Of a stretch of DNA of 64,000 nucleotides, positions 1-42,719 are shown piece by piece. The number at the start of each line of letters is the position of its first letter. The stretch's first letter is position 1. The stretch is from Candidatus Woesearchaeota archaeon (GTDB taxonomy: Archaea > Nanobdellota > Nanobdellia > Pacearchaeales > GW2011-AR1), in NCBI GenBank assembly GCA_964413095.1, contig CAYPRJ010000001.1, forward strand, positions 6,975 to 70,974, read 5' to 3'. The notes below the pieces were generated by a model, which had not been told where the DNA came from, did not search any database, and worked only from the letters and a program-made list of their open reading frames with translations. A program made the position numbers and the translations under genes.

Positions 1-987
1 CCATGGACTTTACCCCTTTTTATTAAAAATAAAATGATTAATCCCTTGGCTGCAGGATTAATGAGTTTTTTAGTTGATGGTTCTAGAACACTTTTGGTTG
101 CAGGAACAAGAAGTTCTGGGAAAACTTCTTTGCTCGGAAGTTTAATGTTAGAGATAATCCCAAAATACAGAATTATTGTTGTTGAGGATTCTTTAGAGTT
201 GCCTGTTGAATCTCTTAAAGATCTTAATTATGATATTTTAAGAATGAAAGTTCGTTCTGCTTTACTTAAAACTACAACAGAGGTTTCTGCTGAAGATGGG
301 ATTAGGACTAGTTTAAGATTAGGAGATTCTTGTTTAATTGTAGGAGAGGTTAGAAGTGTTGAAGCCAAGGCTCTTTATGAGGCTATGAGGGTTGGAGCTT
401 TGGCAAATGTGGTAGCAGGAACAATTCATGGTGCTTCTCCTTATGGGGTTTTTGACAGAGTTGTAAATGATTTAGAAGTTCCAGCTACAAGTTTTAAAGC
501 AACAGATTTAATTGCTGTTTGCAATCCAGTGAAAACTCCTGATGGATTGCATTCTTACAGACGTGTCATGCAACTTTCTGAAATAAGAAAACATTGGAAA
601 GAAGATCCTATCAGTGAAAATGGATTTGTTGATTTGTTAAAATATAATGTTAAAAAAGATGAGCTTGAAGCTACTGATGATTTAATGAATGGAGATAGTG
701 AGATTATAAAAGATATTGCTTCTAATGTAAAAGGCTGGGCAGGAAACTGGGATGCTGTTTATGATAATATTTTGCTCAGAGCTAAAATAAAAAAAGAACT
801 TGTAGATATTGCAAAAAAAACTGGCAAAGAAAAAATTTTAGAAGCTAATTTTAATTTACTTTCAAATCATATGTTTCATAAAATTTCTGATAAAGTTAGG
901 GAAGAAGTTGGTCTGCCTTTAAGTGAGAGAGTTTTTCCTGAATGGCAAAAATGGTTGAATGAAGAAATTAAAAAAAGAAAATTTTGA
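1..987 (+). CDS. Type IV pilus/archaellum-type secretion ATPase (FlaI/TadA/GspE family), C-terminal part; gene begins upstream of window
   Basis: Frame 1 is open from nt 1. Walker A-like GTRSSGKTSLLGSLM, Asp box/Walker B IVGEVRSVEA and His box GTIHGASP match FlaI/VirB11-family ATPases. The M at nt 34 is internal, not the start. Confidence 0.75.
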   Translation, partial: PWTLPLFIKNKMINPLAAGLMSFLVDGSRTLLVAGTRSSGKTSLLGSLMLEIIPKYRIIVVEDSLELPVESLKDLNYDILRMKVRSALLKTTTEVSAEDGIRTSLRLGDSCLIVGEVRSVEAKALYEAMRVGALANVVAGTIHGASPYGVFDRVVNDLEVPATSFKATDLIAVCNPVKTPDGLHSYRRVMQLSEIRKHWKEDPISENGFVDLLKYNVKKDELEATDDLMNGDSEIIKDIASNVKGWAGNWDAVYDNILLRAKIKKELVDIAKKTGKEKILEANFNLLSNHMFHKISDKVREEVGLPLSERVFPEWQKWLNEEIKKRKF

Positions 988-1930: not shown

Positions 1931-4114
1931 GTGAATATGGCAAAATCTCAGAAGAAGCCAAGTGTTGATGATATTCTTAGAAAGTATGGGGCGAAGATAG
2001 AAGGAAAAATTAAGACTTCTGGTGTAAATCGAAAAGTAAAAACAGATTATAGCAGAGAGTATGTTAAATTTAAAAGTGAGATGGCTCCTGAACTTTCAAA
2101 ATTTGAAAAATGGTGTCATAGTCTTGGAAATATTTTAAAATTAAAAATTTCAGAAAAAGACGAGAAAAAAATTAAAAGACAGATTGAAATTGCACATCTC
2201 GACATAGAGCCATGGCAGGCATTGACTTTAAGTGTTGTTGCTTTTGCAAGTGTTTTTATTTTTGGTTTGTTGGCGTCTGTATTAGTAGCTTTAATTAGAG
2301 GAGGTATTTCTGAATTTCCTTTTTTGTTTTTCTTTTTAATGATTATTGTTTCTTTTTTTTCATTTTATATTGTTAATGGAATTCCTGCAAGGCTTGCTAA
2401 CAAGTGGAGACTTAAAGCTTCTTCACAAATGGTGCCAGCAATTTTGTATATTGTTATTTATATGAGGCACACACCCAATCTTGAAAGAGCAATTTCTTTT
2501 GCTTCTGAGCATTTACAATACCCTCTTGCTTTAGATTTTAAAAGAGTTTTTTATGGTGTTTCTGTTGGAAAATTTTCTACAATTAAAGAAAGTTTAGACA
2601 ACTACTTAGAGACATGGAGAGATTATTCTATTGAATTTATTGAAAGTTTTCATTTGATAGAAAGCAGTTTGTTTGAGCCAAATGAAGAGAGGAGAATTGC
2701 TTCTCTTGAAAAAGCTTTACAGGTTGTACTTGACGGAGTTTATGGTAAGATGCTTAAATTTACCCACAAGGTAAGAAGCCCTTTGACTAATGTTTATATG
2801 CTCGGAGTTGTTTTGCCGACTCTTGGTTTAGCTTTGTTGCCATTGGCTTCTGCAATGCTTGGAGGTTTTTTAAAATGGCATCATGTTCTTATTTTGTTTA
2901 ATCTTATACTTCCTTTTTTGGTTTTTTATCTTACAGATAAAATTATGTTTTTGCGTCCTGGTGGCTATGGTGAAACAGACTTATTAGAAAGAAATCCTCT
3001 GTATTCCAAATATAAAGATAACAGCCATTACACAAAAGCTTTTTTGATTTGTCTTCCTTTTTTGCTTATAGGTTTGTTGCCTTTAATTTTTCAATACACC
3101 CCAATTCCAGAAATTCTTGGTTTGCAAAGTGATTATACTTTTTCTAATTTAGGGTTGGGTCTTTTAGGAGATGAATCTATTTTTGGGTTTATAGAAACTA
3201 CTGAAGGTTTTAAGGGACCTTTTGGTGTTGGAGCTTTAGTTTTTAGTATGTTTATTCCATTAGGAATAGCTTTATTTTTTTCAACAGCTTTTAAGTCTAA
3301 GACAAAAGAATTAATTGTAGAAAGGAAAAAAACAAAGCAATTAGAAAAAGAGTTTAATAATTCTCTTTTTCAGTTAGGAAATAGAATAGGTAATGGGACT
3401 CCTCCTGAACTTGCTTTTGGAAAAGTTGCAGAATCTTCTCGCGGTTTGATAACAGAGAATTTTTTTAACAGAGTAAATTATAATATAAGGCAAATGGGTA
3501 TGAGCGTTGAGAAAGCTATTTTTGATCCAAAAATTGGAGCTATGAGATACTATCCTTCTGCATTAATTCTTACAAGTATGAGAATTCTTATAGAATCAGC
3601 AAAAAAAGGTTTAAAGATTGCTGCTAGGAGTCTTATGAGCATTTCAGAGTATGTAAAAAATATACAAAAAATAACTAGCAGACTTAAAGATTTGCTTGCA
3701 GAAATAGTTTCTGATATGAAAAGTAATATGACTTTTTTAGCTCCTTTACTTTCTGGAGTTGTTGTTGGTTTATCTATTATGATTACTTCTATTTTAGGGA
3801 AATTAAATTTAGCAAGTCTATCAGAAACAGATGTTGGAATTGGAAACTTAGATACAATTTTAAATATTTTTAATTTAGGAAACATGATTCCTCCTTATTA
3901 TTTGCAAATAATAATTGGTGTTTATTTAATTGAAATAGTTTTTATTTTAACAAGAACACTTGTGGCAATTGATTCAGGAGAAGATAAATTAGAAAAAACA
4001 AATAAAATAGGAAAAAATCTTATGAAAGGAATTACTCTTTATTTTATTGTAGCTCTTTTAGCAACTTTAGCTTTGTTTGTTTTAAGTTCTGTGGTTCTTG
4101 GAAATTTAGTTTAA
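1931..4114 (+). CDS. FlaJ/TadC-like polytopic membrane platform protein of type IV pilus machinery
   Basis: 727 aa with many TM helices and large cytoplasmic loops, immediately downstream of the FlaI-like ATPase, which is the canonical gene order. This is a family-level call. Confidence 0.5.
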   Translation: MNMAKSQKKPSVDDILRKYGAKIEGKIKTSGVNRKVKTDYSREYVKFKSEMAPELSKFEKWCHSLGNILKLKISEKDEKKIKRQIEIAHLDIEPWQALTLSVVAFASVFIFGLLASVLVALIRGGISEFPFLFFFLMIIVSFFSFYIVNGIPARLANKWRLKASSQMVPAILYIVIYMRHTPNLERAISFASEHLQYPLALDFKRVFYGVSVGKFSTIKESLDNYLETWRDYSIEFIESFHLIESSLFEPNEERRIASLEKALQVVLDGVYGKMLKFTHKVRSPLTNVYMLGVVLPTLGLALLPLASAMLGGFLKWHHVLILFNLILPFLVFYLTDKIMFLRPGGYGETDLLERNPLYSKYKDNSHYTKAFLICLPFLLIGLLPLIFQYTPIPEILGLQSDYTFSNLGLGLLGDESIFGFIETTEGFKGPFGVGALVFSMFIPLGIALFFSTAFKSKTKELIVERKKTKQLEKEFNNSLFQLGNRIGNGTPPELAFGKVAESSRGLITENFFNRVNYNIRQMGMSVEKAIFDPKIGAMRYYPSALILTSMRILIESAKKGLKIAARSLMSISEYVKNIQKITSRLKDLLAEIVSDMKSNMTFLAPLLSGVVVGLSIMITSILGKLNLASLSETDVGIGNLDTILNIFNLGNMIPPYYLQIIIGVYLIEIVFILTRTLVAIDSGEDKLEKTNKIGKNLMKGITLYFIVALLATLALFVLSSVVLGNLV

Positions 4115-4168: not shown

Positions 4169-5302
4169 ATGAAAGGATATGATAGAGAAGAACAATTAAG
4201 ACAACAAGCATCTTTTTATGGGTTTAGAAAAAACCAGGAAGAAAAAGAAAGTATAAAGAAGCTTGTTAGAAAGTTATCTTTTGCCGGAGGAATAATATTG
4301 TTTTCTATGGGAGCTTGGCAAGCATCTTCGTCTTTTGTTGAAGAATTTAAGGAAAAAGAAAAAGATATCGCTAGACTTCAAAAATCTTATGATAATAAGA
4401 TTGAAGAATTTAAAAATTTAGAAGACAAAAACAAAAACTTAGAAAAAATTATTGAAGAGATTTTACCAAAATTAGAAAACAGGATAGCTAGTATAGAAGA
4501 ATCAGATCCTGGAATTATGTGGGATGCTGAAAATCTTATTAATAAATTAAGAGGGGGATATAATCAAGAGATTGATTTAAGAGAGTTAGAATCTTTGGTG
4601 ACAATTATTCCCAATAATATTACCAGAGCACAGCATACTTTGCTTGAAAGAAAACATGGAATTAATCTTTACAAACCCACTGAATCTTTTATAAAAAATC
4701 ATTTAGCAAATAATGGACATACTTATGTTACAAGTGAGCAAGGACAGAGAACACATGTTAAATTTAATGTAAATGAGTTAGATATTAGAGATATAGGAGG
4801 TAATTGGTTTTATATTGATGGGGAGCTTGGTTCTTGGAAAAAGGAAACTGTCAAAGGAATGAATGCATTTGTAAGGGATATTTTTCATAATGCAATTGAT
4901 TTATTTAATTCTTATGATAAAAGTATTTTTGTGAGGCATGAAGGGGAGATTGTTCTTTTTGAAGATTTTCATTCTGATGGCATTGAAGACCCTTATAATG
5001 ATCCTCTTGGAAGAAGTTGTATTTATGGGTTTGAGGAAGAAGGAAAAAAATATAGAGTTCAACTTTCTCATTTGAATGATGAATTACCTATAAAATTTAA
5101 ACCAGGAGACAAAGTTTATCCAGGAGATATTTTGGGAATTATTGGGAAAACAGGATTTGCTACAGGCCCACACCTTGATGTTAGATATTTTAAAAAAGAA
5201 AATAATGGGTGGAAAGAACTGATTTTATATTCAAATCGCACTTTTAATCCAGGAGAAAATTTTCTTTATGTTGACTGGATAAATAAGGACTGGAGAGAAT
5301 AA
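4169..5302 (+). CDS. M23 (LytM/lysostaphin)-like metallopeptidase with N-terminal TM and coiled-coil
   Basis: C-terminal GDKVYPGDILGIIGKTGFATGPHLDVRYF resembles the M23 signature G.TG.STGPHLHFE. An upstream HNAID gives an HxxxD motif at about 90 aa spacing. The second His of HxH is replaced by Asp. Confidence 0.55.
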   Translation: MKGYDREEQLRQQASFYGFRKNQEEKESIKKLVRKLSFAGGIILFSMGAWQASSSFVEEFKEKEKDIARLQKSYDNKIEEFKNLEDKNKNLEKIIEEILPKLENRIASIEESDPGIMWDAENLINKLRGGYNQEIDLRELESLVTIIPNNITRAQHTLLERKHGINLYKPTESFIKNHLANNGHTYVTSEQGQRTHVKFNVNELDIRDIGGNWFYIDGELGSWKKETVKGMNAFVRDIFHNAIDLFNSYDKSIFVRHEGEIVLFEDFHSDGIEDPYNDPLGRSCIYGFEEEGKKYRVQLSHLNDELPIKFKPGDKVYPGDILGIIGKTGFATGPHLDVRYFKKENNGWKELILYSNRTFNPGENFLYVDWINKDWRE

Positions 5303-5540: not shown

Positions 5541-5699
5541 ATGAGAAAAATAAAAAAAGGTGTTGTTTCAGAATATCTTCCTTGGTTATTAATAGCAATT
5601 GCAGTTCTTGCTATAGTTATGATTACTCTTTTTTTGCTGAAAGATAGGGGATTTTCTTTGATTGATAAAATAAAAGATTTATTTACAGGGGGCATATAA
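5541..5699 (+). CDS. small pilin-like protein (class III signal peptide candidate)
   Basis: MRKIKKG|VVSEYLPWLLIAIAVLAIV: basic N-terminus, then Gly, then a hydrophobic helix. The stop overlaps the next start. Confidence 0.35.
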   Translation: MRKIKKGVVSEYLPWLLIAIAVLAIVMITLFLLKDRGFSLIDKIKDLFTGGI

Positions 5700-5866
5700 T
5701 GGCAAATTTAACAGTTCCTCAGTTAATTAAAATTATTATTGGAATTGCTGTAGTTGTTGTTGTAATTCTTGGTTTATTTTTATTTTTTAAAGAACAGGTA
5801 ATAGATTTTTTTAATAATTTTATAGGAGAAGAACCTCAAAAGTTTTTTCTTAGTTTTTTAAAATGA
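5699..5866 (+). CDS. small membrane protein
   Basis: 55 aa with one TM. Its ATG overlaps the preceding stop (ATAATGG) and its TGA overlaps the next ATG. Confidence 0.3.
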   Translation: MANLTVPQLIKIIIGIAVVVVVILGLFLFFKEQVIDFFNNFIGEEPQKFFLSFLK

Positions 5867-6378
5867 GAAATAAAAAAGGATTTTTATTAGGAGAAGAAAC
5901 CCTGAAAATAATTTTAGCTTTAGTTGCTATTGGTTTTTTAATTTATTTTTTAGTTTCTTTATATCTAGCAAACAGCAAAAGTAAAGATTTGGAACTTGCT
6001 GAAGCATCTTTAGAGCATTTAATTGAAGAAATAAATTCAAAAAATAGTGAAATTGAAATTTATAATCCTGAAGGTTGGTGGATAATTTCTTGGCCTTATG
6101 AAGGGATTATTCCTAATTCTTGTTCTAATGTTGGCTGGGAAAATTGTGTTTGTATTTATAGAGGGGAATCAGGTATAGGCAAGTTTTTTAAAAATTTAGG
6201 AAGCAGAATGGGTTTAAGCAAAGATGAAAAAGAAAGATTAGCAATTATTGTAGATGATGAGGAAAGAGCTCTTTGTCTAGAAAGTGATTTTTCTTTTGAA
6301 ACAAACCCAACAAAAATACAAAATCCTCCTTTAACATTAAACATAGAATATAATGAGGAAATAATAATAACAAGGTAA
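5863..6378 (+). CDS. pilin-like protein
   Basis: MRNKKGF|LLGEETLKIILALVAIGFLIYFLV class III signal-like N-terminus, 171 aa. Confidence 0.4.
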   Translation: MRNKKGFLLGEETLKIILALVAIGFLIYFLVSLYLANSKSKDLELAEASLEHLIEEINSKNSEIEIYNPEGWWIISWPYEGIIPNSCSNVGWENCVCIYRGESGIGKFFKNLGSRMGLSKDEKERLAIIVDDEERALCLESDFSFETNPTKIQNPPLTLNIEYNEEIIITR

Positions 6379-6379: not shown

Positions 6380-6484
6380 ATGGATTTAGATGCATTAATA
6401 AAATATTTAATATGGATTGTTTTTTTTGGATTAGCTTTGGCTGGGATGTATTTTATGCTTAAAAGATTTGGAGTAGTAGGATGA
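6380..6484 (+). CDS. small membrane peptide
   Basis: 34 aa (MDLDALIKYLIWIVFFGLALAGMYF...). The stop overlaps the ATG of the next gene. Confidence 0.25.
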   Translation: MDLDALIKYLIWIVFFGLALAGMYFMLKRFGVVG

Positions 6485-7257
6485 AAGTTAATTCAGGTAA
6501 AAAAGGTGAAATTTCAACAAGATATTTAATTATGATAATAATTTTAATTGCAAGTTTTGCTATAATTTTGTTTTTTATTTTTAGATTGAATTTACAAGAA
6601 ACAGGTGATAAAGAAATTTGCCATAATTCTGTTGTTTTAAAATCAAAAGGAAAAGGACTTGTGGGAGATTTGGATTGCAAGACAAATTATGTTTGTATTT
6701 CTGGAGGAAAAGATTGTGAGGGAATAAATCCTACTACTACAATTAAGGTTGATCCTAAAAACAAAGAAGAAATTATGAAGGCAATAGCAGAAGAAATGGC
6801 AGATTGCTGGTGGATGTTTGGGGAAGGAGAATTGGATTATTTAGGTTTAGGAGAAGAAGGACTCTCAAAAACAACTTGCGCAATGTGTTCTATTATTAAG
6901 TTTGATGAAAAGATATTAAAAGAAGATTATAAAATAACTTATACAGAATTTTATGAATATCTTAATACAATTAAAAAAGATGAATCTCAGACTTATTTAA
7001 CTTATTTGTATGATGTTTATAATATTAAAGAACTTCAGGAAAACTTTTTCTTAGATAAGGATATTGAGAAAAATTTTATTTTAACAAAAGATAGATATGC
7101 AATTGTAACAGGAGTAAAAAAAGGAGCTACAATTAAGGTTTTTGGAAAAGATATTAATTTGCCTTGGTTTAAGAGAAATTTAATTCCTTCTTATTATATT
7201 AAATCTGAAAGTTTAAGTGAAGAGTTGGGTTGCGATGAGTATGTTACTAAGGCTTAG
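6481..7257 (+). CDS. pilin-like / Cys-containing secreted protein
   Basis: N-terminal KKGE then a hydrophobic helix. 258 aa with multiple Cys pairs in the mature part. Confidence 0.4.
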   Translation: MKVNSGKKGEISTRYLIMIIILIASFAIILFFIFRLNLQETGDKEICHNSVVLKSKGKGLVGDLDCKTNYVCISGGKDCEGINPTTTIKVDPKNKEEIMKAIAEEMADCWWMFGEGELDYLGLGEEGLSKTTCAMCSIIKFDEKILKEDYKITYTEFYEYLNTIKKDESQTYLTYLYDVYNIKELQENFFLDKDIEKNFILTKDRYAIVTGVKKGATIKVFGKDINLPWFKRNLIPSYYIKSESLSEELGCDEYVTKA

Positions 7258-9253
7258 AAAGATACTCTTTAGAACGTTTTGTTAAGTATAGTAGACCATG
7301 GTAAGTATCTATACCTTCTTCTTTAAAACTCTCAATGAATTTTTTATTTAAATTAGGTAACATAAAGATGAAATTTCTTCCCATTCTTTTTCCAAGTTCT
7401 GAAACTTTTCTTATAGCTTCTTCTTCTGGGATGTTTTTCTTTTCATAACTTTCAACTAATTCTTCAATTGGAGAAATGAAATTTCTTTTAATAAATCCAT
7501 TTAATTCTTCTTTACTCATATTATAAAGAGTCCTTTGAAATTTTGCTGCTTCTCTAAAATATTCTCCAGATTTAGAGATGGGTATATCTAAAATTTTGTA
7601 GGGATCTTCATCATATACTTCGTTGAGATAAAATTCTCCTCCTATTCTTTTTTGGTAATTTATTAAAGAATCAAGATAAGCTCTTTCAGTGTTTATATCC
7701 AGTTCTTCATCTAATATAAATATTGGAACAAAACCCTTTGATATAAAGGCCATACCTACATTTCCGTATCCAGGGAAACCGAATGTCTCTTCTTTACCCA
7801 CCTTATTTAGAAAGTCCCACGCATCTGTATTTTCCTTAAACTGCCAAATTTCTAGTTGTAGCATATTTGGATCAGATGCTTTTAAGGATTGAATGTTTTC
7901 TGTGTTATATAAAGCAGCTCCTAGACCTATAAGGTTTAGTTCATCCAATTCCCAATTTTCTTCTCTCATCTTAGCTATTTCTCTTTTATTAAGGATGTAA
8001 GGAAGTGTTCTTCCTTCAATATCTTGGATAAGTGAGATTCCTTCCAACTCCTCTCCTTGCAAGAAATAATCCTCTAATGTTTGAGGTCCTCTTTCGGCAA
8101 GTTCCTTTTCTTGTTGAAAAAGAATTTTTGAGAAATTAACTAGGTTTGCATAATAATCATCTAAATTTTTGCTGAAAACTTTAGAGTTCATTCCAAGATT
8201 TGCTTCTAATCCTCCCAGCATTTTCCAAGATGATTTTTCAGAATTTATTGCTAAAGAACCTTCTATTTCTGCACTTGGTCCAGCAATGCCGTAAACTAAG
8301 AAGTTTAGTCTTGGTTCAACATATGCATTTAAATTAGAAATCTTAGAAAGTTCAGGAGGAGAGAAATTAAAAGAGTTTGAAAAATCACTATCTTTATCCC
8401 ATTTTTTATCTTTATATGAAACTCCAGCACTTATAGAATTTTCTTCTGTTATAGAAGTTTCTATTGGAGAAATACTTCCCTCTAATCCAATATATAATTG
8501 TAATTCTGGTTTTATTATTATTGGCAGAGGAGTTCCTGGGATTACTCCTGCATTAAAAGGGGGGAAATTATATTGAGCGATTTTTATTTCTTTATTTATA
8601 TCTTCGAGGGATTCAGAAGAATTTATTTCTAATTCATATCCAATATCAGATTTATTTCTAAAAGATAATTCTTTTAAGGAGTTGTTTTGAATGTCACAAT
8701 TTATAAAAAATTTTGAATAAAAATTGAAATTTCCGTTTGCAGTTATTTGGTCTTCTGTAGTAGTTTTGTCTCCATCAGCATCATATAAAACAATTTCTTT
8801 GAAATCGTGATTTATATTAAGAGAACCTGCTTCATGGTGTTTTTTAAATGTTCCTTCTTTAGTTTTAAGAATATATTCTCCTGAAGGAGGGGATACTTCT
8901 AATTCAAAAGATGCATTTTTTACAGCCTCTTCTAAAGTGGCATCTTCTATTTGTATTGTCTTTTTATCTTCAGAAACATTATTTACTTTTTTTAAAAGTC
9001 CATAAGGGGTTGAATCGCTAATTCCTGTAGAGACTATATCTCCTGTAGAAAAAGAAACAGGTTCTGAGAAATCTATTCTGTTTTCTCCCACTGATGAAAT
9101 ATTTTTAATATCCTTTTCTGACAAAACAAGAGTATAAGGAGAAAGTTCATTTTTTGGTCCCAATAATGAAGAGATTTCTTTTTGACATCCTGCAAACAAA
9201 ACAGAAGCTCCTAGCAAAGCTCCAGCGATAATATTTCTAAGGTTTTTCTTCAT
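7247..9253 (-). CDS. secreted lipoprotein of unknown function (possible pilus-associated adhesin)
   Basis: N-terminus MKKNLRNIIAGALLGASVLFAGC has a lipobox Cys after a signal peptide. 668 aa, embedded among pilin genes. Confidence 0.5.
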   Translation of the reverse strand: MKKNLRNIIAGALLGASVLFAGCQKEISSLLGPKNELSPYTLVLSEKDIKNISSVGENRIDFSEPVSFSTGDIVSTGISDSTPYGLLKKVNNVSEDKKTIQIEDATLEEAVKNASFELEVSPPSGEYILKTKEGTFKKHHEAGSLNINHDFKEIVLYDADGDKTTTEDQITANGNFNFYSKFFINCDIQNNSLKELSFRNKSDIGYELEINSSESLEDINKEIKIAQYNFPPFNAGVIPGTPLPIIIKPELQLYIGLEGSISPIETSITEENSISAGVSYKDKKWDKDSDFSNSFNFSPPELSKISNLNAYVEPRLNFLVYGIAGPSAEIEGSLAINSEKSSWKMLGGLEANLGMNSKVFSKNLDDYYANLVNFSKILFQQEKELAERGPQTLEDYFLQGEELEGISLIQDIEGRTLPYILNKREIAKMREENWELDELNLIGLGAALYNTENIQSLKASDPNMLQLEIWQFKENTDAWDFLNKVGKEETFGFPGYGNVGMAFISKGFVPIFILDEELDINTERAYLDSLINYQKRIGGEFYLNEVYDEDPYKILDIPISKSGEYFREAAKFQRTLYNMSKEELNGFIKRNFISPIEELVESYEKKNIPEEEAIRKVSELGKRMGRNFIFMLPNLNKKFIESFKEEGIDTYHGLLYLTKRSKEYLSKP

Positions 9254-9348: not shown

Positions 9349-9747
9349 ATGAAGAATAAAAGAGGTGCAAATATTTTAACAGAGAACCTTATTTTTATTA
9401 TTTTGAATTTGGTTTTTATAAGTATTTTAATTATTTTTTTATTTTCTAAGACAGGAAGTGCTGCTGTTTTAGAGGAGAAATATGCTAAGCAAATAGCTTT
9501 GATAATTGATTCCGCAAAACCACAAATGACAATTAAACTTAATATGAAAGATGCTATTGATAAAGCAAAAAAAGAATGGGATGAATCAAAAATAGATGAA
9601 ATAGTGAAGATTAATGGCAATATTGTCTCAGTAAAACTTAGAGAGAAGGGAGGTTATAGTTATTCATTTTTTAATGATATAGAAGCTAATGTATATCTTG
9701 ATACTACAAATAATGAAGAATATATTATTACAGTAAATGAAAAATAA
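9349..9747 (+). CDS. pilin-like protein
   Basis: MKNKRGA|NILTENLIFIILNLVFISILIIFLF: KRG then a hydrophobic stretch typical of archaeal prepilins. 132 aa. Confidence 0.45.
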   Translation: MKNKRGANILTENLIFIILNLVFISILIIFLFSKTGSAAVLEEKYAKQIALIIDSAKPQMTIKLNMKDAIDKAKKEWDESKIDEIVKINGNIVSVKLREKGGYSYSFFNDIEANVYLDTTNNEEYIITVNEK

Positions 9748-10930
9748 AAAGCTAAGTTGGAAATTGAATAAAAAAGGGGACAAAATAATCTCTGTTTATT
9801 GGTTTGTAATTTTGTTTATTGTAGTTGCAGCTGTTGTTTATATGGCCTATCTTTTTTATGGAACTCCTTATGATGCAAGAGCTGTTGAAGCAAGAGTTTT
9901 AAAAAATAAAATTGCAGATTGTTTATCTGAAGGAGGATATTTAAAAGAAAAAGTTTTAACAGAAAATTTCAAGGATAATTTTTTAGAGAAATGCGATTTA
10001 AACTTAAATGTTGAGGATGCTTATGGTTGGGAAGATGACCAGTATTATATTAAGGTGAGTTTTTATGAATTTGATAATGATTTTTCAGGTAATTTAGGAA
10101 ATTTAATTGAAGAGATAGAAGTTGGAAATATTAATTTAGTTTCTTATGCCATTCAAGAGCAAAAAGAAAAAAGCAAAAAAGATGAGATGGATACAATTGT
10201 GATTCATTATACAGAAGGTTTTTCTGCCAGAGGAGCAATTGAAACAATAAAAGATAATAATTTAAGTGTGCATTATATGATTGATAGAGATGGAACAATT
10301 ATTTCAAAAGAAAATGCTGATAACTTTTTGGAAGGAGGAGAAAAAGCCTTTGTTGGAGAAGATGAGAGAGGAGCTCATGCTGGATGTTATGATATCAGGA
10401 AAGGAGAAGAAAGAAGAAAATGCACTGAAGAAGATTTTGAAAATTTAAATTCAATTAATAATAGTTGTGATTTATTTGATTTAAACGAGGAAGAAAAATG
10501 TTGTATTCCTAGTTTTAACACGCATTCTATTGGAATAGAGCTTGTAAATCTTGGTTCTAAGTGTAATGAAGAAACTGTTTTAACAGAAAATTATTGCGAG
10601 GATAATGAAGTAGAAATTTGTGGAAAAAAATGGGAGAATTTCACTGCAGAACAAATTAGTTCTTTAATGAATTTAGCTTCAGAAATTGCTTCAAGAAATA
10701 AGATTCCTATTGACAGGGAGCACATAATTGGACATGACGAGATTGCTTTTGGGTTTAAATCAGATCCTGGTCCTGCATTTCCCTGGAAAAGCTTTATAGA
10801 AAATTTGAAAATTAGAGAAACACTAACTCCTAATTTAGAAAGAAGTTTTTATGTTTTAGATAAAAATACTAATGAAAAATATGTAATTAAAATTTTGACA
10901 ATTGTAAGAAAAACAGAAAAAAATGCTTAA
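9737..10930 (+). CDS. N-acetylmuramoyl-L-alanine amidase (amidase_2 / AmpD-PGRP family) with N-terminal membrane anchor and Cys-rich insertion
   Basis: IVIHYTEG...SVHYMIDRDGTI, GAHAG, NTHSIGIELVN, and HIIGHDEIAFGFKSDPGPAFPW match the amidase_2 Zn-amidase blocks of T7 lysozyme and AmpD (GH..i..K.DPGP.F). Confidence 0.8.
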   Translation: MKNKKLSWKLNKKGDKIISVYWFVILFIVVAAVVYMAYLFYGTPYDARAVEARVLKNKIADCLSEGGYLKEKVLTENFKDNFLEKCDLNLNVEDAYGWEDDQYYIKVSFYEFDNDFSGNLGNLIEEIEVGNINLVSYAIQEQKEKSKKDEMDTIVIHYTEGFSARGAIETIKDNNLSVHYMIDRDGTIISKENADNFLEGGEKAFVGEDERGAHAGCYDIRKGEERRKCTEEDFENLNSINNSCDLFDLNEEEKCCIPSFNTHSIGIELVNLGSKCNEETVLTENYCEDNEVEICGKKWENFTAEQISSLMNLASEIASRNKIPIDREHIIGHDEIAFGFKSDPGPAFPWKSFIENLKIRETLTPNLERSFYVLDKNTNEKYVIKILTIVRKTEKNA

Positions 10931-11447
10931 TAAGATTTTAATAAGAAAAAAAGCTCAGATTGGGGAAACTATAACATGGGTAGTTGCAACTATCATTATA
11001 ATTGTTATTCTTGCATTTTCAATTTTTGTTACATCATCATTAACAAAAGGAAAAGGAATTTCAGGAGCAGGGAATGGTAAAGAAATTGGAGTGATTAATG
11101 AAAAAGATTTAATTGCTGCAAAATCTTTATCTAGCTATTTATTGACAAAAGATGCTTCTGGAGAAATTGTTTTTGAGCAGATAAAAACCGAAGGAAATTT
11201 AAATGATTTTAATGGAGAATTAGCTGAGGCAATTTTTGAGGGGCTTTATAGTAAAGATTACTCTCATGTTATTTGGTTTGGAGTGGTTAAAAATGTAGGA
11301 TTATTTAATAATGATTATTTTGGTAGTAGGGGAAAGACAGTACAGCGAAAAGGAGGAGATACAGTTCCTGGATATTATTCTTCTGTTGGTGAAAAATTAA
11401 TGTTAGATGAAAATAAATGGTTGGAATTAATCTTAATGGATGATTAA
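10923..11447 (+). CDS. pilin-like protein
   Basis: N-terminal basic stretch then TITWVVATIIIIVILAFSIFV helix. 174 aa. The start overlaps the upstream stop. Confidence 0.35.
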   Translation: MLNKILIRKKAQIGETITWVVATIIIIVILAFSIFVTSSLTKGKGISGAGNGKEIGVINEKDLIAAKSLSSYLLTKDASGEIVFEQIKTEGNLNDFNGELAEAIFEGLYSKDYSHVIWFGVVKNVGLFNNDYFGSRGKTVQRKGGDTVPGYYSSVGEKLMLDENKWLELILMDD

Positions 11448-11793
11448 AATGAGAAAAATCACAAAAAATAAGAAAGCAGATATTCCTGTGACAATTTTAG
11501 TAATTGGTATTGTTGCAGTTTGTGTTTTGGCGATTATAAGTTTTGTAATCTCTGGAAGTTCAAATCAAACAGGAGTCGAAGCTTTTGAAGAAATAGATTC
11601 TTATGTTGAAAAATTTTATTTTTATTTAAATGCTGGTTTTTCAGAAGAGGAAGCTTTGGAAAAAGTTTCTGCAGAAAAAATTTCTGGAAAGAATTTGGAA
11701 ATGAAAATTGAGGAAAATAATTTAATTATAAAAAAATATTATAAAGAAAGAGATGTTGTTTTGGATATTAAATATGCAAAGCCCTTGAAATAA
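11440..11793 (+). CDS. pilin-like protein
   Basis: N-terminal KNKKADIPVTILVIGIVAVCVLAIISFV. 117 aa. The start overlaps the upstream stop. Confidence 0.35.
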   Translation: MIKMRKITKNKKADIPVTILVIGIVAVCVLAIISFVISGSSNQTGVEAFEEIDSYVEKFYFYLNAGFSEEEALEKVSAEKISGKNLEMKIEENNLIIKKYYKERDVVLDIKYAKPLK

Positions 11794-11831: not shown

Positions 11832-12323
11832 ATGTTGAATAAAAGAGGTCAGGGTTTAAGCACTAATGCTATAATATTAATTATTTTGGGTGTTGTTGTT
11901 TTAGTTATTTTAATAATAGGATTTACTCTTGGATGGGGAACCTTGAAAGACAGAATAACTGGTGGAGGAAATAATGTTGATGATGTTGTTCAGGAATGTA
12001 GTTCAGCATGCGCTACTTTAAGCAGATATAGTTATTGTTCTGCAAAAAAGGAATTAAAAACAGAAGATGAAACATTAACTAATGTTACTTGTTATTATTT
12101 AGCTGAAAAGCAACCACAATATGGAATTGAAAAATGTTCTGCTTTGAGTTGTGATTATGTGTTTGTAGATGTAGATGTAAATGAAGGAGAGACAATTGAA
12201 GACAAGTGTAAAGATAATGAAGAAAATGCAATTCAGGCATTAAAAGGAGAGACAATTCAGGCCTTAATAGATAATGAATTAATTAGTCATGATTGTCCTG
12301 CACAATCTGAAACTGCTGAATAA
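11832..12323 (+). CDS. archaeal type IV pilin (class III signal peptide)
   Basis: MLNKRGQ|GLSTNAIILIILGVVVLVILIIGF has the canonical KRGQ prepilin-peptidase site. The mature part is Cys-rich. Confidence 0.55.
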   Translation: MLNKRGQGLSTNAIILIILGVVVLVILIIGFTLGWGTLKDRITGGGNNVDDVVQECSSACATLSRYSYCSAKKELKTEDETLTNVTCYYLAEKQPQYGIEKCSALSCDYVFVDVDVNEGETIEDKCKDNEENAIQALKGETIQALIDNELISHDCPAQSETAE

Positions 12324-12673: not shown

Positions 12674-13522
12674 ATGGAAGAGGTGATTTTTTTAATAATT
12701 TTAGCATTAATCTGGATTATTTTTGCTGTTGTTCAGGATTTAAGAAATAGAGAAATTGCTAATTGGTTAAATTTTTCTTTAATAATTTTTGCCTTGGGGT
12801 TTAGGTTTTTTTATTCTCTGTTTTCTGAAACAGTGAGTTTTTCTTTTTTTTATCAAGGACTTTTAGGTCTGGGAATTTTTTTTGCATTAGGAAACTTGCT
12901 TTATTATAGTAGAATGTTTGCAGGAGGAGATGCAAAACTTATGATTTCTTTAGGGGCTGTGCTTCCTTTTTATAATGTTTTTTTTGACAATCTAAAAAAC
13001 TTTGTATTATTCTTTTTAATCTTTTTAGTTGTTGGTGCTTGTTATGGTTTTATTTCAAGTATTATTGTAACAGTAAAAAACTTTCAACCATTTAAAAAAG
13101 AATTTTCTTCACAAATAAAATCAAGAAAAAAAATATTATATGTTTTGATGGTTTTTGGTTTGGTATTAATGATTTTAGGATTTTTTGAAAATCTTTTTTT
13201 TCTTTTTGGTATTTTTTCTTTTATTTTCCCCTGGTTCTATATCTATGCAAAATCTGTTGATGAAGCATGTATGATTAAAAAAATCGAAGTGAAAAAATTA
13301 AGAGAAGGAGATTGGCTTTATAATAATGTAAAAATTGGGAAGAAGATAATTAAGGCAAAATGGGATGGTTTATCAAAAAAGGAAATCAAGGAGATAAGGA
13401 AGAAAAAGAAAAACGTGAAAATAAGAGAAGGAATTGCTTTTAGTCCTGTTTTTTTAATTAGTTTTATAATTTTGGCTTTATTTTATTTTTTGAAAATAGA
13501 TTTATGGAATTTTATAATTTAA
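12674..13522 (+). CDS. prepilin/preflagellin peptidase (A24 family, PibD/FlaK-like) with Lys-rich C-terminal extension
   Basis: Polytopic membrane protein with VQDLRNREIANW (first Asp motif) and FAGGDAKLMISLGAV (the GxGD-type second catalytic Asp motif of A24 peptidases). Confidence 0.65.
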   Translation: MEEVIFLIILALIWIIFAVVQDLRNREIANWLNFSLIIFALGFRFFYSLFSETVSFSFFYQGLLGLGIFFALGNLLYYSRMFAGGDAKLMISLGAVLPFYNVFFDNLKNFVLFFLIFLVVGACYGFISSIIVTVKNFQPFKKEFSSQIKSRKKILYVLMVFGLVLMILGFFENLFFLFGIFSFIFPWFYIYAKSVDEACMIKKIEVKKLREGDWLYNNVKIGKKIIKAKWDGLSKKEIKEIRKKKKNVKIREGIAFSPVFLISFIILALFYFLKIDLWNFII

Positions 13523-16158: not shown

Positions 16159-19100
16159 ATGGCTACTAAAAAAGATGTTGAAGAAATTAAGAATGCTGTT
16201 TCTGGAGAGGAGAAGGAGGAAAAAGAGCCTCAGCTTACAGATTTGCCGGGAATTGGTCCTGCAGTAGCAACAAAGCTTGAATCTGCAGGAATATATGATT
16301 TAATGTCTTTAGCTGTTATGGGTCCTGCTGAGTTAGGGAATATTGCTGGTGTTAGTGCTGGTGTTGCAAGAAAAGCTATTCAAGCAGCGCGTAGTATGTT
16401 GAAACTAGGTTTTACAGATGGCTTTGAATATGCACAGAGAAGAGCTAATGTTAATTATATTACTACTGGAAGTAAAAATATTGATAATCTTCTTGGGGGA
16501 AAAGGTGTAGAAAGCAGAGCAGTTACAGAAGCATTTGGAGCTTATGGTTCTGGAAAGTGTGTAAGTAAAGACACTGCGGTTAGTTATTTTAATGATACAA
16601 GGATGCATGTTGAGCAGATACAGGAAACTTACAATAAATACAACAAAAATAATGAGTTTAAGTTTGAGGAAGGATTTGCTGTCCCTGTTTCAAGCGTAAA
16701 GGTTCTTGCTTGGAATAAGGGAAAATTAAAAGTTGCAAGAGCTTCACATTTATATAAGGAAAAAGTAAAGCAGTTATTCTTAGTAAAAACAAAAAGAGGC
16801 AGGGTTTTAAAAGTTACAGGAAAACACAGGATTTTAAGTTTTGATAATGGGGTTAAATGGAAAAAAACATCGGATTTAAAAAAAGGAGACTTAATTGCTT
16901 CTCCAAGAAAATTAGATTTGGTTACAGAAAATATTTATGATGAAGATGATGCTTATTTTTTGGGGTTGTTTGTAGCAGAAGGAACTTCAAATCCTTTTTC
17001 AATTTCAACTGGCTCTGAAAAAATAAAGAATTGGGTTTGCAATTACATAAAAAATAAATTTAGATATGTTCCTCTGGTGAGATATAATCAAAGAGGTGAA
17101 AAACCAGTTTATACAATTTTATCAAAAAATAAAACCCGCGGAATAATGGCTGGACTTGATAAATGCAACTCCTCTAATAAGTTTATTCCTGAAGCTATTT
17201 TTCTTTCAGATGAAAATGTTGTTTCTTCATTTTTAGGAGGATATCTTGATGGAGATGGAGAGGTTTCTAAAACAGATGTCTCTGCGACTACAAAAAGCTC
17301 TAAACTGGCTACACAATTAAGTTATTTGTTTTTAAGATTGGGAATTAGCGTAAGTATTAAAGAAAGAAAAAATGAAAAATATGGAAACTATAAGGTAGTT
17401 AGGGTAAGTGGTGAAGATAGAAAAAGGCTAAAAAATGTTTCTTTTAAGATAAAAAGATTTTCTCCTGATATAAGAAATAGTGCTTATGGCTATCCTCGAA
17501 AAATAATTTCTTTTCTTCACCAACTTTATAAAGAGTGTCTTGGAGGTAATAGGGGAAGATTAAGAAAAGAAGTAGGCAAAAGAAGTTTGGACAGAACTGT
17601 TTATTCTAATTTAATAAACCAATATCAGGGAAAGGTGGTAAATACAAAAACATTTAGAAGAATAGAAGATGTTTTTGAAAAACAGAAAGACAGATTTGTT
17701 CATATTTTAAAGAAACTCGAAGATGAAGAATTTAGCCAGGAAATTTTAAATGAAATCTATCCTAGTTTGCCTTTTGCTTTTAGTTCATTGGCAGAAGATA
17801 TGGGCCTGAAGAAAAAAAGCATAAGAAATTATTATCATAGAAATATTCCTAATTCAAAAAAAGAGATTTTAAAGAATCTTATTTTTAATGAATTAAAAAC
17901 CAGGGTTGATATGATTTACCTGGCTTTGGAAATTATTTCAGAAATAAAGATGTTTAATTGGGATGTTGTGGAGAGTGTTGAAGTTATTGATTATGATGAT
18001 TATGTTTATGACTTTGTTGTTCCAGAGGGGCATTCTTTTATTGGGGGCAATCTTCCTACAATGATGCATAATACTCAGCTTGGTTTAACTCTTGCTGTTA
18101 ATGTTCAATTGCCTGTTGAAAAAGGTGGTGCAAATGGAAAGTGTGTTTTTATTGATACAGAAGGAACTTTCAGACCAGCGCGTATAAAACAAATTGCTGA
18201 AATTTTAGGAGCCAATCAAGAAAAAGTTTTGAAAAATATTTTAGTTGCAAGAGCTTTTAATTCAGATCATCAAATTTTGCTTTTAGAAAAAATCTCTGAA
18301 ATGGTTAAACAAGGAGAACCAATTAAATTATTAATTGTTGATTCTTTAACTGCACATTTTAGAGCAGAGTTTTCAGGAAGAGGACAATTAGCAGACAGGC
18401 AGCAAAAATTGAATAAATATCTTCATAATTTAATGAGGCTTGCTGAACAGCACAATCTTGCAGTTTATGTTACAAATCAAGTAATGGCAAATCCTGCGCA
18501 GATGTTTGGAGATCCTACAACTGCAATTGGGGGGAATATTGTGGGACACGCTTGTTTAACAGGAGATAGTTTAATTCAATTAGCTGATGGAAGTATAAGG
18601 GAAATTAAAAATATTAGTAAGAATAATGTTATTTCTGGAAATTTAAATAAATTAAGCTTTGAACAAGCAGGCTCTGAAAAAACTTTTATCAATCCAGACA
18701 TCAAAAAAATTTACAATATTAAAACAACAAATCAAATAAAGTGTTCTCCTCTCCATAGATTTTTTTCAATAGAAAATTTTTCTATTATTGAAAAAGAAGC
18801 CAAAGATTTGAGAGAGGGGGATTTTATTGCTCATGCAGGAAGAATTGAGATAGGGGGAGAAGAGCAGGAGTTGCCGACTCTAAATTTAAGAAGAATTGGA
18901 AAAATATCTAAAGATGAGGGAAAATTAATTTCAGAGGAGCTTGGAAAAGGAAATATTTCAAGAAATGAAATATGCAAGAAAGTGGGGATAACTTCAAGGC
19001 AGTTTAGAAGGGTTTTAAATCAGTCATATCCTACAAATATTAAAGTTTTTGATGCTTTAAAAAAGCATTTTGCAAATAATCTTCAGTTACAGGTTGTTCC

Positions 19101-20166
19101 TTTTTATACTTATAAACATCAGAATATTATGATTCCTGAAACTTTAAATCCTCGGTTAGCACAAATTTGTGGCTATTTTATTGGTGATGGAAATTTTGAG
19201 GCAAGAGGTTTAAGATTTAGAGATGAAAGGGAGGGGGTTTTACAATTTTACAATAAACTCTTTTCAGAAACATTTAGGATTCAGGGAAAGATTTCTAAAA
19301 TGAAAAATAAAAATTGTTTTACTTTAAATATTAATTCAAAAGAAATTGCTGATTTTTTTAGACTTATTCTTCCGGATATTTTTGATTATGTTGCTAAATC
19401 CAAGAAAGATGTGGTAGCAGGTTTTATCAAGGGCTTTATTGATGCAGAAGGGCATGTCAATAAAAAAAGACCAAAAATAACAATTGCTCAAAAAGAAAAA
19501 CTAATTTTAAGATATTTGCAATTATTTTTGCTGAGATTTGGAATCAGAAGTTTTTTGAGATTTGATGGTGGTAAGAAAAAAATTTCAAATCTTTCAATAA
19601 GAGATCGGAGCGTTAAGGATTATTTGCAGATTGGTTTTAGTGCTGAAAGTAAACAGAAGCAATTATTAAAATGGATAAAGCATGTTAATAAGACATATCA
19701 AAAAGAAATGATGCCTATTCAAAGAAACGAGATTTTAGAACTTCTTAAAAGTGTTGGGTTAAAACCCTCTTTAATCATTAAGTCTAGACCCTCTTCTTAT
19801 AAATGGATAAATGGGGAGGAGTTAAAAAAAGCACATAATGCTCTCATGAATAGTAGAGTAAATGATAGACAAATAAAACAGAAAATTGAATTTATATTTA
19901 AACTATTAAATTCAGATATAAGATTTGAAAAAATTAGAAAGATATCAGTTTCTGAAAATAAAGGAAAAGAATTATTTTATGATTTTTCTGTTCCTAAAAA
20001 GGAGAATTATATGGCTAATGGTTTTATTGTTCATAACTCCACATACAGAATGTATTTAAGAAGAGGAAAAAAAGATTCACGAGTTGCAAAGTTAATTGAC
20101 TCTCCGAATTTGCCAGATAATGAAACAGTTTTTTATCTTACAGAGTCTGGTGTTAGAGATGAATAA
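16159..20166 (+). CDS. radA: DNA repair and recombination protein RadA containing two inteins
   Basis: The N-terminal HhH domain, Walker A GAYGSGK|..|TQLGLTLAV, Walker B LLIVDSL and C-terminal GGNIVGHA|..|STYRMYLRRGKK...LIDSPNLPD are contiguous RadA sequence once two intein blocks are removed. Confidence 0.9.
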   Translation: MATKKDVEEIKNAVSGEEKEEKEPQLTDLPGIGPAVATKLESAGIYDLMSLAVMGPAELGNIAGVSAGVARKAIQAARSMLKLGFTDGFEYAQRRANVNYITTGSKNIDNLLGGKGVESRAVTEAFGAYGSGKCVSKDTAVSYFNDTRMHVEQIQETYNKYNKNNEFKFEEGFAVPVSSVKVLAWNKGKLKVARASHLYKEKVKQLFLVKTKRGRVLKVTGKHRILSFDNGVKWKKTSDLKKGDLIASPRKLDLVTENIYDEDDAYFLGLFVAEGTSNPFSISTGSEKIKNWVCNYIKNKFRYVPLVRYNQRGEKPVYTILSKNKTRGIMAGLDKCNSSNKFIPEAIFLSDENVVSSFLGGYLDGDGEVSKTDVSATTKSSKLATQLSYLFLRLGISVSIKERKNEKYGNYKVVRVSGEDRKRLKNVSFKIKRFSPDIRNSAYGYPRKIISFLHQLYKECLGGNRGRLRKEVGKRSLDRTVYSNLINQYQGKVVNTKTFRRIEDVFEKQKDRFVHILKKLEDEEFSQEILNEIYPSLPFAFSSLAEDMGLKKKSIRNYYHRNIPNSKKEILKNLIFNELKTRVDMIYLALEIISEIKMFNWDVVESVEVIDYDDYVYDFVVPEGHSFIGGNLPTMMHNTQLGLTLAVNVQLPVEKGGANGKCVFIDTEGTFRPARIKQIAEILGANQEKVLKNILVARAFNSDHQILLLEKISEMVKQGEPIKLLIVDSLTAHFRAEFSGRGQLADRQQKLNKYLHNLMRLAEQHNLAVYVTNQVMANPAQMFGDPTTAIGGNIVGHACLTGDSLIQLADGSIREIKNISKNNVISGNLNKLSFEQAGSEKTFINPDIKKIYNIKTTNQIKCSPLHRFFSIENFSIIEKEAKDLREGDFIAHAGRIEIGGEEQELPTLNLRRIGKISKDEGKLISEELGKGNISRNEICKKVGITSRQFRRVLNQSYPTNIKVFDALKKHFANNLQLQVVPFYTYKHQNIMIPETLNPRLAQICGYFIGDGNFEARGLRFRDEREGVLQFYNKLFSETFRIQGKISKMKNKNCFTLNINSKEIADFFRLILPDIFDYVAKSKKDVVAGFIKGFIDAEGHVNKKRPKITIAQKEKLILRYLQLFLLRFGIRSFLRFDGGKKKISNLSIRDRSVKDYLQIGFSAESKQKQLLKWIKHVNKTYQKEMMPIQRNEILELLKSVGLKPSLIIKSRPSSYKWINGEELKKAHNALMNSRVNDRQIKQKIEFIFKLLNSDIRFEKIRKISVSENKGKELFYDFSVPKKENYMANGFIVHNSTYRMYLRRGKKDSRVAKLIDSPNLPDNETVFYLTESGVRDE
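16558..18072 (+). mobile_element. RadA intein 1 (505 aa) inserted in the P-loop, with LAGLIDADG homing endonuclease domain
   Basis: Starts with Cys right after GSGK, ends ...MMHN before TQL. LAGLIDADG blocks are LGLFVAEGTS and LGGYLDGDGEV. Confidence 0.85.
18553..20037 (+). mobile_element. RadA intein 2 (495 aa) with LAGLIDADG domain
   Basis: Starts CLTGDSLIQLADG, ends GFIVHN|S. LAGLIDADG blocks are ICGYFIGDGNFE and VAGFIKGFIDAEGHV. Confidence 0.85.
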
Positions 20167-40584: not shown

Positions 40585-40720
40585 AGCCTGTGGAGGGATT
40601 CTAACCCCCGGCCTACTGCTGGCTTTCTGAACATGTAGTTGGCTCAGATACAAGGCAGTTGAGCATATCTTAACCTTTTAGAGTCACAGATATTCCGCTC
40701 TAACACTGAGCTACACAGGC
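40585..40720 (-). tRNA. tRNA-Thr(TGT) with two introns (~36 nt after the D-arm, ~28 nt at 37/38)
   Basis: Reverse complement: acceptor GCCTGTG/CACAGGC, D-arm GCTC..GAGC, anticodon stem ACTGC/GCAGT with loop CTTGTA|intron|A, T-arm GGGGG-TTAGAAT-CCCTC. Confidence 0.6.
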
Positions 40721-42610: not shown

Positions 42611-42719
42611 TGGTCCTGCGCGGAATTGAACCGCGGTTTTATCCATTTTGTGAACAGCTTACAGATTTAAGTGAACTGAACTCGTCAAGGACATGTCTTA
42701 GCCACTGGACTACAGGACC
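42611..42719 (-). tRNA. tRNA-Val(GAC) with ~37-nt anticodon-loop intron
   Basis: Reverse complement: acceptor GGTCCTG/CAGGACC, D-arm GTC-AGTGGCTAA-GAC, anticodon stem TGTCC/GGATA with loop TTGACG, T-arm CGCGG-TTCAATT-CCGCG. Confidence 0.6.

Follow-up and report, generated by a model that had tools for sequence, protein, structure and literature searches.

What does an M23-type peptidase do in the genome of an archaeon, and can it still be an enzyme when one of its Zn ligands has been exchanged? These questions are raised by a gene at positions 4169-5302 of the analyzed stretch of contig CAYPRJ010000001.1 (64,000 nucleotides in full, called the window below). The C-terminal domain of its product keeps four of the five catalytic residues of M23 peptidases, while Asp337 takes the place of the Zn-binding second His of the HxH motif. 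Our answer, to which we give a probability of roughly 0.55, is that the gene encodes a horizontally acquired, membrane-anchored, stalk-mounted M23 endopeptidase with a His/Asp/Asp site, acting with an amidase on bacterial peptidoglycan. The gene and the parts of its product are the following (AF2, AlphaFold2; pLDDT, predicted local distance difference test):

4169..5302, forward strand: M23-like gene, an open reading frame (ORF) with an ATG start, 377 amino acids (aa); PF01551 match at E=2.2e-6, M23 fold by AF2 and Foldseek.
4274..4333, forward strand: probable single transmembrane anchor, residues ~36-55; moderately hydrophobic, Kyte-Doolittle maximum 1.24 at residues 32-50.
4334..4504, forward strand: helical (coiled-coil-like) stalk, residues 56-112; AF2 helix, weak Pfam matches to coiled-coil families.
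4505..4720, forward strand: family-specific helical linker domain, residues 113-184; AF2 helices 118-128, 137-146 and 151-163, conserved family-wide.
4721..5278, forward strand: M23/LytM catalytic-type domain, residues 185-370; AF2 strands and pLDDT, Foldseek, profile alignment to PDB M23 chains.
4886..4900, forward strand: H240-N-A-I-D244, the HxxxD motif with two metal ligands; motif scan, aligned with HSGLD of PDB 2hsi.
5069..5071, forward strand: H301 (in SHL, 300-302), catalytic-type His; motif scan, role as in PMC9662197.
5171..5179, forward strand: H335-L-D337, with H335 as the first His of HxH and D337 in place of the Zn-ligand His.
5183..5185, forward strand: R339, at the +2 position, where canonical M23 proteins usually have Glu (HLHFE); HLDVR in the window protein and in its relative P0001.

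The product of ORF 4169-5302 is a real M23/LytM-fold protein with Asp in the Zn-ligand His column of HxH, and the M23-like block recognized in the preliminary description has thus been borne out (HLD at 335-337). Alignment to PF01551, named there as a check, gives a match at E=2.2e-6 (28.2 bits versus a curated cut-off of 28.7, residues 240-344), and the predicted fold is that of M23, not an unrelated one. The relatives P0001, P0002 and P0006 carry a precomputed PF01551 assignment, and all significant PDB sequence matches of the protein are M23 peptidases. The best PDB match of the profile built from 10 family sequences is Csd3 (4rny, E=4.7e-10), with further matches to 2hsi, Csd1/TagE, LytU, ShyA, StM23, lysostaphin, LytM and others, and the HxxxD and HxH columns of this profile align without gaps onto the solved enzymes (HSGLD of 2hsi; HLH). 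The single-sequence phmmer alignment, setting PHL--DVRYF against PHLhyEVRF with a 2-residue gap, was rejected in favor of the ungapped family-profile alignment.

The AF2 model, built on the family alignment, has a mean pLDDT of 77, with the M23 core blocks at ~80-95 except for one loop; the loop at ~266-280 is poorly modelled (pLDDT near 50 at 271-280), and a 28-residue beta insertion (~199-226) lies inside the domain. Foldseek against the PDB returns 50 matches at E<=1e-3, nearly all of them M23/LytM domains (among others EnpA, lysostaphin, LytM, ShyA, Pgp3-type, PrgK-LytM, DipM and EnvC), with a TM-score of ~0.6 when normalised on catalytic-domain-only targets and a probability of 1.0.

The Zn ligands of M23 enzymes are both residues of H(x)nD, His and Asp, and the second His of HxH; a catalytic role falls to the first His of the HxH motif and to one more His ~30 residues upstream (PMC9662197). 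Therefore D337 occupies a ligand column, and H301 and H335 correspond to the two catalytic histidines. The loss of the Zn-ligand His, claimed already in the preliminary description, is confirmed by both the motif scan and the profile alignment, as is HNAID, placed there ~90 residues upstream and found at 240-244: the spacing between H240 and H335 is 95 residues, and H301 lies 34 residues before H335. A regular-expression motif scan finds HLD (335-337) inside GKTGFATGPHLDVRYF; the block G-x-T-G-x-x-T-G-P-H is present, and D337 is encoded by GAT (window 5177-5179). Judged by the motif definition of catalytic M23 proteins, H-x3-D and the upstream His are there and the second His of HxH is replaced by Asp, so that the protein is a variant of M23 by descent, not a canonical catalytic member. 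The EnpA entry labelled A109H (PDB 6smk), considered as a natural HxH variant, was dropped, as it is an engineered H109A construct, reverted.

The N-terminal half agrees in outline with the transmembrane anchor and long coiled coil proposed for it earlier. It has a hydrophobic segment at ~36-55, and residues 6-112 form a single continuous helix in the AF2 model. Equivalent hydrophobic segments are found in other family members. The basic segment KKLVRK, N-terminal to the probable anchor, would be cytoplasmic, which corresponds to an N-in/C-out topology, and the helical linker domain (113-184) might be a regulatory or occluding module.

Relatives of the protein are few. When 1.84 billion cluster representatives were searched exhaustively by HMMER with a profile of the window protein and P0001, 64 proteins came out at E<=1e-3, of which about a dozen match over the full length, and a GTDB scan added three members from metagenome-assembled genomes (MAGs) of Spirochaetales; word-indexed homologue searches had given almost nothing beyond P0001 and P0011. 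The family is thus very small, with ~15 full-length members sharing one layout, in which a hydrophobic segment at the N-terminus is followed by a helical stretch, a conserved helical linker and finally the M23 domain. In their alignment H240, D244, H301 and H335 are invariant (15/15), and position 337 is occupied as follows:

His, 9 members: P0002, P0003, P0004, P0008, P0011, P0022, L003, L004, L005.
Asp, 4 members: the window protein, P0001, P0006, P0007.
Cys, 1 member: P0055 (HLC), at 3687-4550 of L093.
Glu, 1 member: P0056 (HLE), at 6001-7197 of L092.

All these residues are capable of binding a metal, the Cys and Glu calls being less certain, since they hinge on a 2-residue alignment insertion before the motif. 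The P0055 contig is phage-like (a Bro-N domain, many small ORFs), and the surroundings of P0056, P0011 and P0007 are uninformative, so that a restriction of variant ligands to archaea is no more than a possibility. The window protein and P0001 are 73% identical over residues 112-377 and visibly more divergent N-terminally (BLAST). An identical protein is present in a Logan assembly, and HLD with a GAT codon is likewise found in an orthologue of 66% identity that comes from a different sample; D337 is therefore not a sequencing error.

In a neighbor-joining tree (13 sequences, 310 trimmed columns, 100 bootstrap replicates) the pair of the window protein and P0001 groups with P0002, which has HVH (bootstrap 97), P0006 (HLD) groups with P0011 (HLH; bootstrap 100), and P0007 (HLD) with P0008 (HLH; bootstrap 81), while a single clade of all HLD proteins is seen in none of the 100 replicates. 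Since HLD is found in three clades and all outgroup M23 proteins have His, the tree indicates that the change from His to Asp arose independently at least three times, each swap being one CAT-to-GAT substitution. Seven amino acids are one base away from the His codon, and Asp alone among them is a classical metal ligand, so that three independent changes to Asp argue for selection to keep a ligand. The pattern of swaps fits ligand retention rather than a decaying pseudo-enzyme, in which the other catalytic residues would be expected to drift too. Of the two possibilities named in the preliminary description, an alternative ligand is the one favored by the comparative evidence, because the four catalytic residues are invariant, position 337 is restricted to His, Asp, Cys and Glu, and the change from His to Asp is recurrent; the degenerate domain is disfavored.

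Outside the family the swap is rare. A metagenome scan with the peptide pattern [IM]G[KEN]TG[FYN][AT]TG, which ends just before the HxH motif, recovered the pattern in 79 loci: HLD occurs only in P0001's own contig, the sole true family relative there, and the other 78 have HxH. The resulting frequency of HxD in non-family loci (0/78) is a rough estimate, many loci being close relatives of one another. HLD does exist elsewhere in M23 with an intact HxxxD motif (P0025/P0051, P0049, P0060) or combined with NxxxD (P0035 and the giant protein P0010), but these matches were retrieved by a profile that itself contains HLD, and hence show existence, not frequency. No HxD variant of M23 was found in a search of the literature available to us.

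P0010 (3192 aa) deserves a separate remark. Its residues ~380-700 comprise two tandem M23 domains with NVGVD and NSGVD and with HLD at the last ligand, so that in both domains the first ligand His is changed to Asn and the last one to Asp, with both catalytic His still in place. The combination of Asn and Asp recurs in P0035 and may represent a second, different variant metal site.

A structural rationale for Asp at this position can be proposed from solved enzymes. In LAS enzymes the last His binds Zn via N-delta-1, which is as many bonds from C-alpha as the carboxylate oxygen of Asp; by this analogy Asp could reach the metal with little change of the backbone. In the enzyme EnpA, a backbone carbonyl is the hydrogen-bond partner of the first ligand His (through N-delta), and Glu two residues downstream is that of the last one (PMC8269130). 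This +2 position is Arg in the window protein and P0001 (HLDVR) and in the non-family M23 proteins P0025, P0049 and P0051 (HLDFR); Arg was not seen here among the HxH sequences examined (query-biased profile hits and metagenome loci), and it is missing from the HLD members P0006 and P0007. The sequences hint that Arg is a compensating second-shell change, with R339 as the partner of D337, the association of Asp with Arg being biased by the query, as the HLD matches were retrieved with a profile containing HLDVR. A precedent in active metallopeptidases is provided by Asp-zincins, where Asp is the third ligand of the catalytic Zn (HEXXHXXGXXD; PMC3890501) in place of the His of metzincins (HEXXHXXGXXH). 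Their fold and catalytic machinery are unrelated to those of M23, and the likeness is an analogy only.

The gene lies among genes whose content and order correspond to an archaeal type IV pilus operon, with an ATPase, a class III signal peptidase and several pilin-like ORFs:

1..987, forward strand: 3' part of a FlaI/TadA-type pilus ATPase gene; PF00437 T2SSE at E=1.8e-13, NCBIfam FlaI and TadA matches.
1931..4114, forward strand: 727-aa polytopic membrane protein, presumed pilus platform protein; syntenic position in L090 and L091.
5541-5699, 5699-5866, 5863-6378 and 6481-7257, forward strand: four pilin-like ORFs; [KR][KR]G and hydrophobic N-termini, syntenic in L001, L090 and L091.
7247-9253, reverse strand: ORF of 668 aa lying mid-operon; its N-terminus (…LFAGC) is lipoprotein-like.
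9349..9747, forward strand: pilin-like ORF, 132 aa, N-terminus MKNKRGANILTENLIFIIL; orthologues in L001, L090 and L091.
9737..10930, forward strand: Amidase_2 (N-acetylmuramoyl-L-alanine amidase type) with a pilin-like N-terminus; PF01510 at E=3.3e-21, AmpD match.
10923-11447, 11440-11793 and 11832-12323, forward strand: three more pilin-like ORFs; N-termini, orthologues in L090 and L091.
12674..13522, forward strand: prepilin/preflagellin peptidase (A24, FlaK-like); NCBIfam FlaK_Arch at E=2.4e-9, orthologues with PF01478.

The ATPase gene runs off the start of the window (no stop codon at 1-33), and its orthologues in two related genomes (loci L090 and L091, on Nanoarchaeia-type contigs) are 762 aa long. 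Two small membrane proteins are encoded between it and the gene of the 727-aa polytopic protein, for which neither PF00482 nor any other Pfam or NCBIfam match was obtained. By sequence inspection, at least eight ORFs have a class III-like N-terminus ([KR][KR][GA] followed by a hydrophobic stretch). The 668-aa ORF is absent from L001, the contig of P0001, and has a weak match (29% over 172 aa) to a 290-aa gene in the same place in L091.

The AmpD-type H...H-x9-D residues of the amidase are intact (IVIHYTEG; GHDEIAFGFKSD), and its N-terminus MKNKKLSWKLNKKG-DKIISVYWFVILF (KKG-DKIISVYWFVILF) is similar to the class III-like signal peptides with which the neighboring pilin-like ORFs begin; the protein might be a pilin-fused murein amidase. 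It has ~75 full-length homologues, the closest named one being from a Candidatus Nanoarchaeia archaeon, and in every case checked the surrounding genes are those of this pilus operon. Over the first 17% of its length the amidase shares 48-49% identity with the N-termini of P0156, a carrier of the lytic transglycosylase domain PF01464, and of P0157, a hypothetical protein annotated as archaeal; apparently, one N-terminal module is joined to wall-degrading domains of different kinds. Murein-degrading genes in Woesearchaeota (within Nanoarchaeia in GTDB) have been taken to indicate that these archaea attack bacteria (PMC9723730), and killing of bacteria by archaeal peptidoglycan hydrolases, which are modular secreted enzymes, has been demonstrated for Halobacteriales (PMC12352652).

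L090 and L091 contain the same operon and the same downstream genes (HIT, EF-1-beta, RPA, RadA, NDK), with identities of 65-72% for the platform protein, 44-47% for the amidase and 56-61% for the A24 peptidase, but tblastn detects no M23 gene in either. The distance between the platform gene and the first pilin gene is 33 bp in L090 versus 1.4 kb in the window, where it holds the M23 gene, and in L001 the M23 gene is followed by the same pilin genes and then by the start of the amidase gene. Given this synteny, the M23 gene is an insertion of 1.4 kb, specific to one lineage, into a conserved operon of pilus genes and amidase. No insertion scars or repeats were found around the insert, only AT-rich chance matches.

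Several features mark the host as an archaeon. Besides the FlaI- and FlaK-like proteins and the pilin-like ORFs with class III-like N-termini, the window encodes RadA, an RPA-like protein, NDK and neighbors of eIF2-alpha type, and four of its six tRNA genes are 109-138 nucleotides long (40585-40720, 42611-42719, 51721-51858 and 55912-56035), being detected by Rfam and not by ARAGORN, which is consistent with archaeal tRNA introns. From the neighboring genes and the one named amidase homologue, the host probably belongs to Nanoarchaeia (DPANN). The window is AT-rich (G+C 0.27-0.35), and the G+C content of the M23-like gene (0.27) matches it.

Other carriers of the family are of more than one kind. 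P0002 and P0006 adjoin genes for the universal archaeal PUA protein and diphthine synthase, both scoring above curated cut-offs, and P0006 also adjoins an archaeal-type D-aminoacyl-tRNA deacylase, scoring below them. In L008 a GGDEF diguanylate cyclase (2962-3552; TIGR00254, 167.8 bits versus a cut-off of 37.4) is adjacent to P0006; GGDEF is unusual for archaea, and this contig otherwise has archaeal markers. The P0003-like clade comes from Spirochaetales MAGs (G+C 0.47-0.52) and has HLH, its genes being located among ordinary bacterial metabolic genes in non-pilus contexts. M23 is overwhelmingly a family of bacteria and phages, so that horizontal transfer into archaea is the economical reading, and the M23-like gene was most likely acquired in this way.

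We infer the following mode of action. The membrane anchor, the external helical stalk of ~60 residues and the helical linker would hold the C-terminal M23 domain some nanometres above the archaeal membrane. In its metal site, His240/Asp244/Asp337 instead of the canonical His/Asp/His, the carboxylate of Asp would take over metal coordination from His, and with H301 and H335 intact the hydrolase function would be kept. In the lineage of the window and P0001 the gene, inserted downstream of the platform-protein gene and ahead of the first pilin gene, would supply an enzyme that cuts the peptide cross-links of peptidoglycan once the pilus has made contact with bacteria, and there the amidase would detach the stem peptides from the glycan. 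To our knowledge, archaea have no murein, and bacterial peptidoglycan is therefore the most likely target.

Several observations weigh against this reading. The PF01551 score is 0.5 bit below the cut-off, the putative transmembrane segment is of no more than moderate hydrophobicity, and the recurrence of the swap is derived from a simple neighbor-joining tree of 13 sequences, with uncertain Cys and Glu calls beside it. The operons of the related genomes lack the M23 gene, which makes it accessory, and P0002 and P0006 lie outside pilus operons, so that the family has no intrinsic link to pili. The presumed co-transcription has to be seen in the light of a 238-bp AT-rich spacer downstream of the M23 gene. 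Finally, known hosts of DPANN are mostly archaea, which have no murein.

The last point leads to one of the alternatives, an active peptidase with a non-murein substrate, namely the wall of an archaeal host (pseudomurein or S-layer) or surface or pilus proteins of the producer itself. In its favor, the protein is made by an archaeon, those DPANN archaea that have been cultivated live with archaeal hosts, some M23 enzymes, e.g. LasA, cut Gly-Gly bonds outside peptidoglycan, and the altered ligand and two family-specific insertions could accompany a changed substrate groove. However, the operon is shared with an Amidase_2 protein whose AmpD-like catalytic residues are intact and whose family is specific for MurNAc-L-Ala, the fusion of its N-terminal module to PF01464 in P0156 makes the gene set look murein-directed, and the Spirochaetales members presumably act on murein; we therefore regard a non-murein substrate as quite unlikely. 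We give an equally small chance to a degenerate, non-catalytic LytM domain of the EnvC/NlpD/ActS type, which would bind peptidoglycan or else bind and activate the amidase of the operon. Amidase-activating degenerate LytM domains are well established (PMC9662197), one canonical Zn ligand is missing here, the amidase gene is 4.4 kb downstream in the same operon, and the helical stalk with LytM recalls EnvC, to the full-length structure of which (8tzl) Foldseek aligns 293 columns. Yet EnvC-type domains lose several ligands, whereas this family shows no variation at four of the five catalytic residues and has only His, Asp, Cys or Glu at the fifth. The operon amidase, moreover, is of Amidase_2 and not of the autoinhibited Amidase_3 type activated by EnvC and NlpD, and in L090 and L091 the same amidase operon exists without M23, so that the amidase is independent of it.

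The swap may also have shifted the metal preference (Mn, Fe, Co) or the pH optimum, or loosened Zn, as an adaptation to a Zn-poor anoxic habitat, which would refine the proposed murein endopeptidase rather than exclude it; we consider such a shift unlikely. It would agree with the recurrence of the swap in a tiny family as opposed to 0/78 non-family M23 loci, with carboxylate being a harder ligand than imidazole, and with the occurrence of Arg, instead of the canonical Glu, at +2 in HLD proteins of three independent lineages. This Arg, however, is missing from P0006 and P0007, Glu is kept in several HLD sequences, and the HLDVR-containing profile biases the association. An artefact, whether a single codon misread in sequencing or a piece of bacterial DNA wrongly assembled into an archaeal contig, is suggested by the bacterial members of the family and by the single base between His and Asp. 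It is highly improbable given GAT in four HLD members from different samples, the matching G+C content (0.27) and the archaeal pilus genes flanking the M23 gene on both sides in two different assemblies.

Compared with known systems, the proposed endopeptidase resembles catalytic M23B enzymes (LytM, lysostaphin, EnpA, ShyA, Csd3; MEROPS M23) in the fold, HxxxD, the upstream catalytic His and the first His of HxH. It differs from them in the change of the Zn-ligand His to Asp and of the +2 Glu to Arg, in two insertions in the domain, in the archaeal host, and in its N-terminal part, where a transmembrane segment, a stalk and a helical linker are found and not, as in those enzymes, a signal peptide together with a LysM, SH3b or occluding domain. 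With EnvC, NlpD, ActS and DipM it shares a nearby amidase gene and, in the case of EnvC, the helical stalk before LytM. These proteins have lost most catalytic residues and activate Amidase_3 in bacterial division, whereas the protein studied here keeps four of five, has Amidase_2 nearby and belongs to a host that should lack a murein sacculus. Hence the earlier framing of the protein as a cell-wall-associated, EnvC-like one was misleading: the host is archaeal, the gene is inserted in a pilus operon, and, unlike in EnvC, catalytic residues are kept.

The LytM domain of PrgK (PDB 8s0u) is among the Foldseek matches. PrgK, from the type IV secretion system of Enterococcus, is likewise a membrane-anchored hydrolase encoded in the operon of an envelope-spanning machine, but enzymes of this type open the producer's own wall for assembly, whereas here the target would be a foreign wall. 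Archaeal hydrolases described by Strock et al. 2025 (PMC12352652) are similar in being bacterial-type enzymes, including M23 domains, acquired horizontally; homology to the M23 domain of zoocin A was reported there in 10 archaeal genomes, including five of Halobacteriales and four of Nanoarchaeia. Those enzymes are modular and secreted, with a catalytic and a cell-wall-binding domain and canonical motifs, in contrast to the protein considered here, which has no wall-binding domain, is membrane-anchored, has HxD and is encoded in a pilus operon.

A wider picture, which we put forward as doubtful, is that some Nanoarchaeia possess a wall-breaching type IV pilus machine, composed of an Amidase_2 protein that begins like a pilin and may be incorporated in the filament or delivered by it, and of a stalked M23 enzyme with a His/Asp/Asp site added in one lineage. 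Such a machine would be a contact-dependent anti-bacterial or parasitic apparatus of archaea, and the toggling among His, Asp, Cys and Glu would define a functional M23 subclass whose metal site is non-canonical. For interactions between DPANN archaea and bacteria, an endopeptidase and an amidase in an archaeal pilus operon make a candidate mechanism of wall degradation coupled to attachment. M23 peptidases, defined by HxxxD and HxH, are under development as antibacterial enzymes. A repeated swap of the ligand from His to Asp (possibly also to Cys or Glu) would show that the triad is more plastic than the textbook motif; motif filters calling HxD proteins degenerate would then mislabel active enzymes, and these proteins would offer a ready test of how the identity of a ligand tunes metal choice and activity.

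Some other genes of the window have unusual features. RadA (16159-20166, forward strand) is 1335 aa long versus 324-337 aa in the syntenic L090 and L091, and contains two LAGLIDADG-type stretches (FLGLFVAEG with GYLDGDG, and GYFIGDGNF with GFIDAEG), being probably interrupted by two inteins. The 777-aa protein encoded after RadA (22367-24700, forward strand) also appears to be intein-bearing (FWIAEG… and YYIKGDGH). Two very large ORFs are located at 45363-51533 (forward strand, 2056 aa) and at 31883-35023 (reverse strand, 1046 aa).

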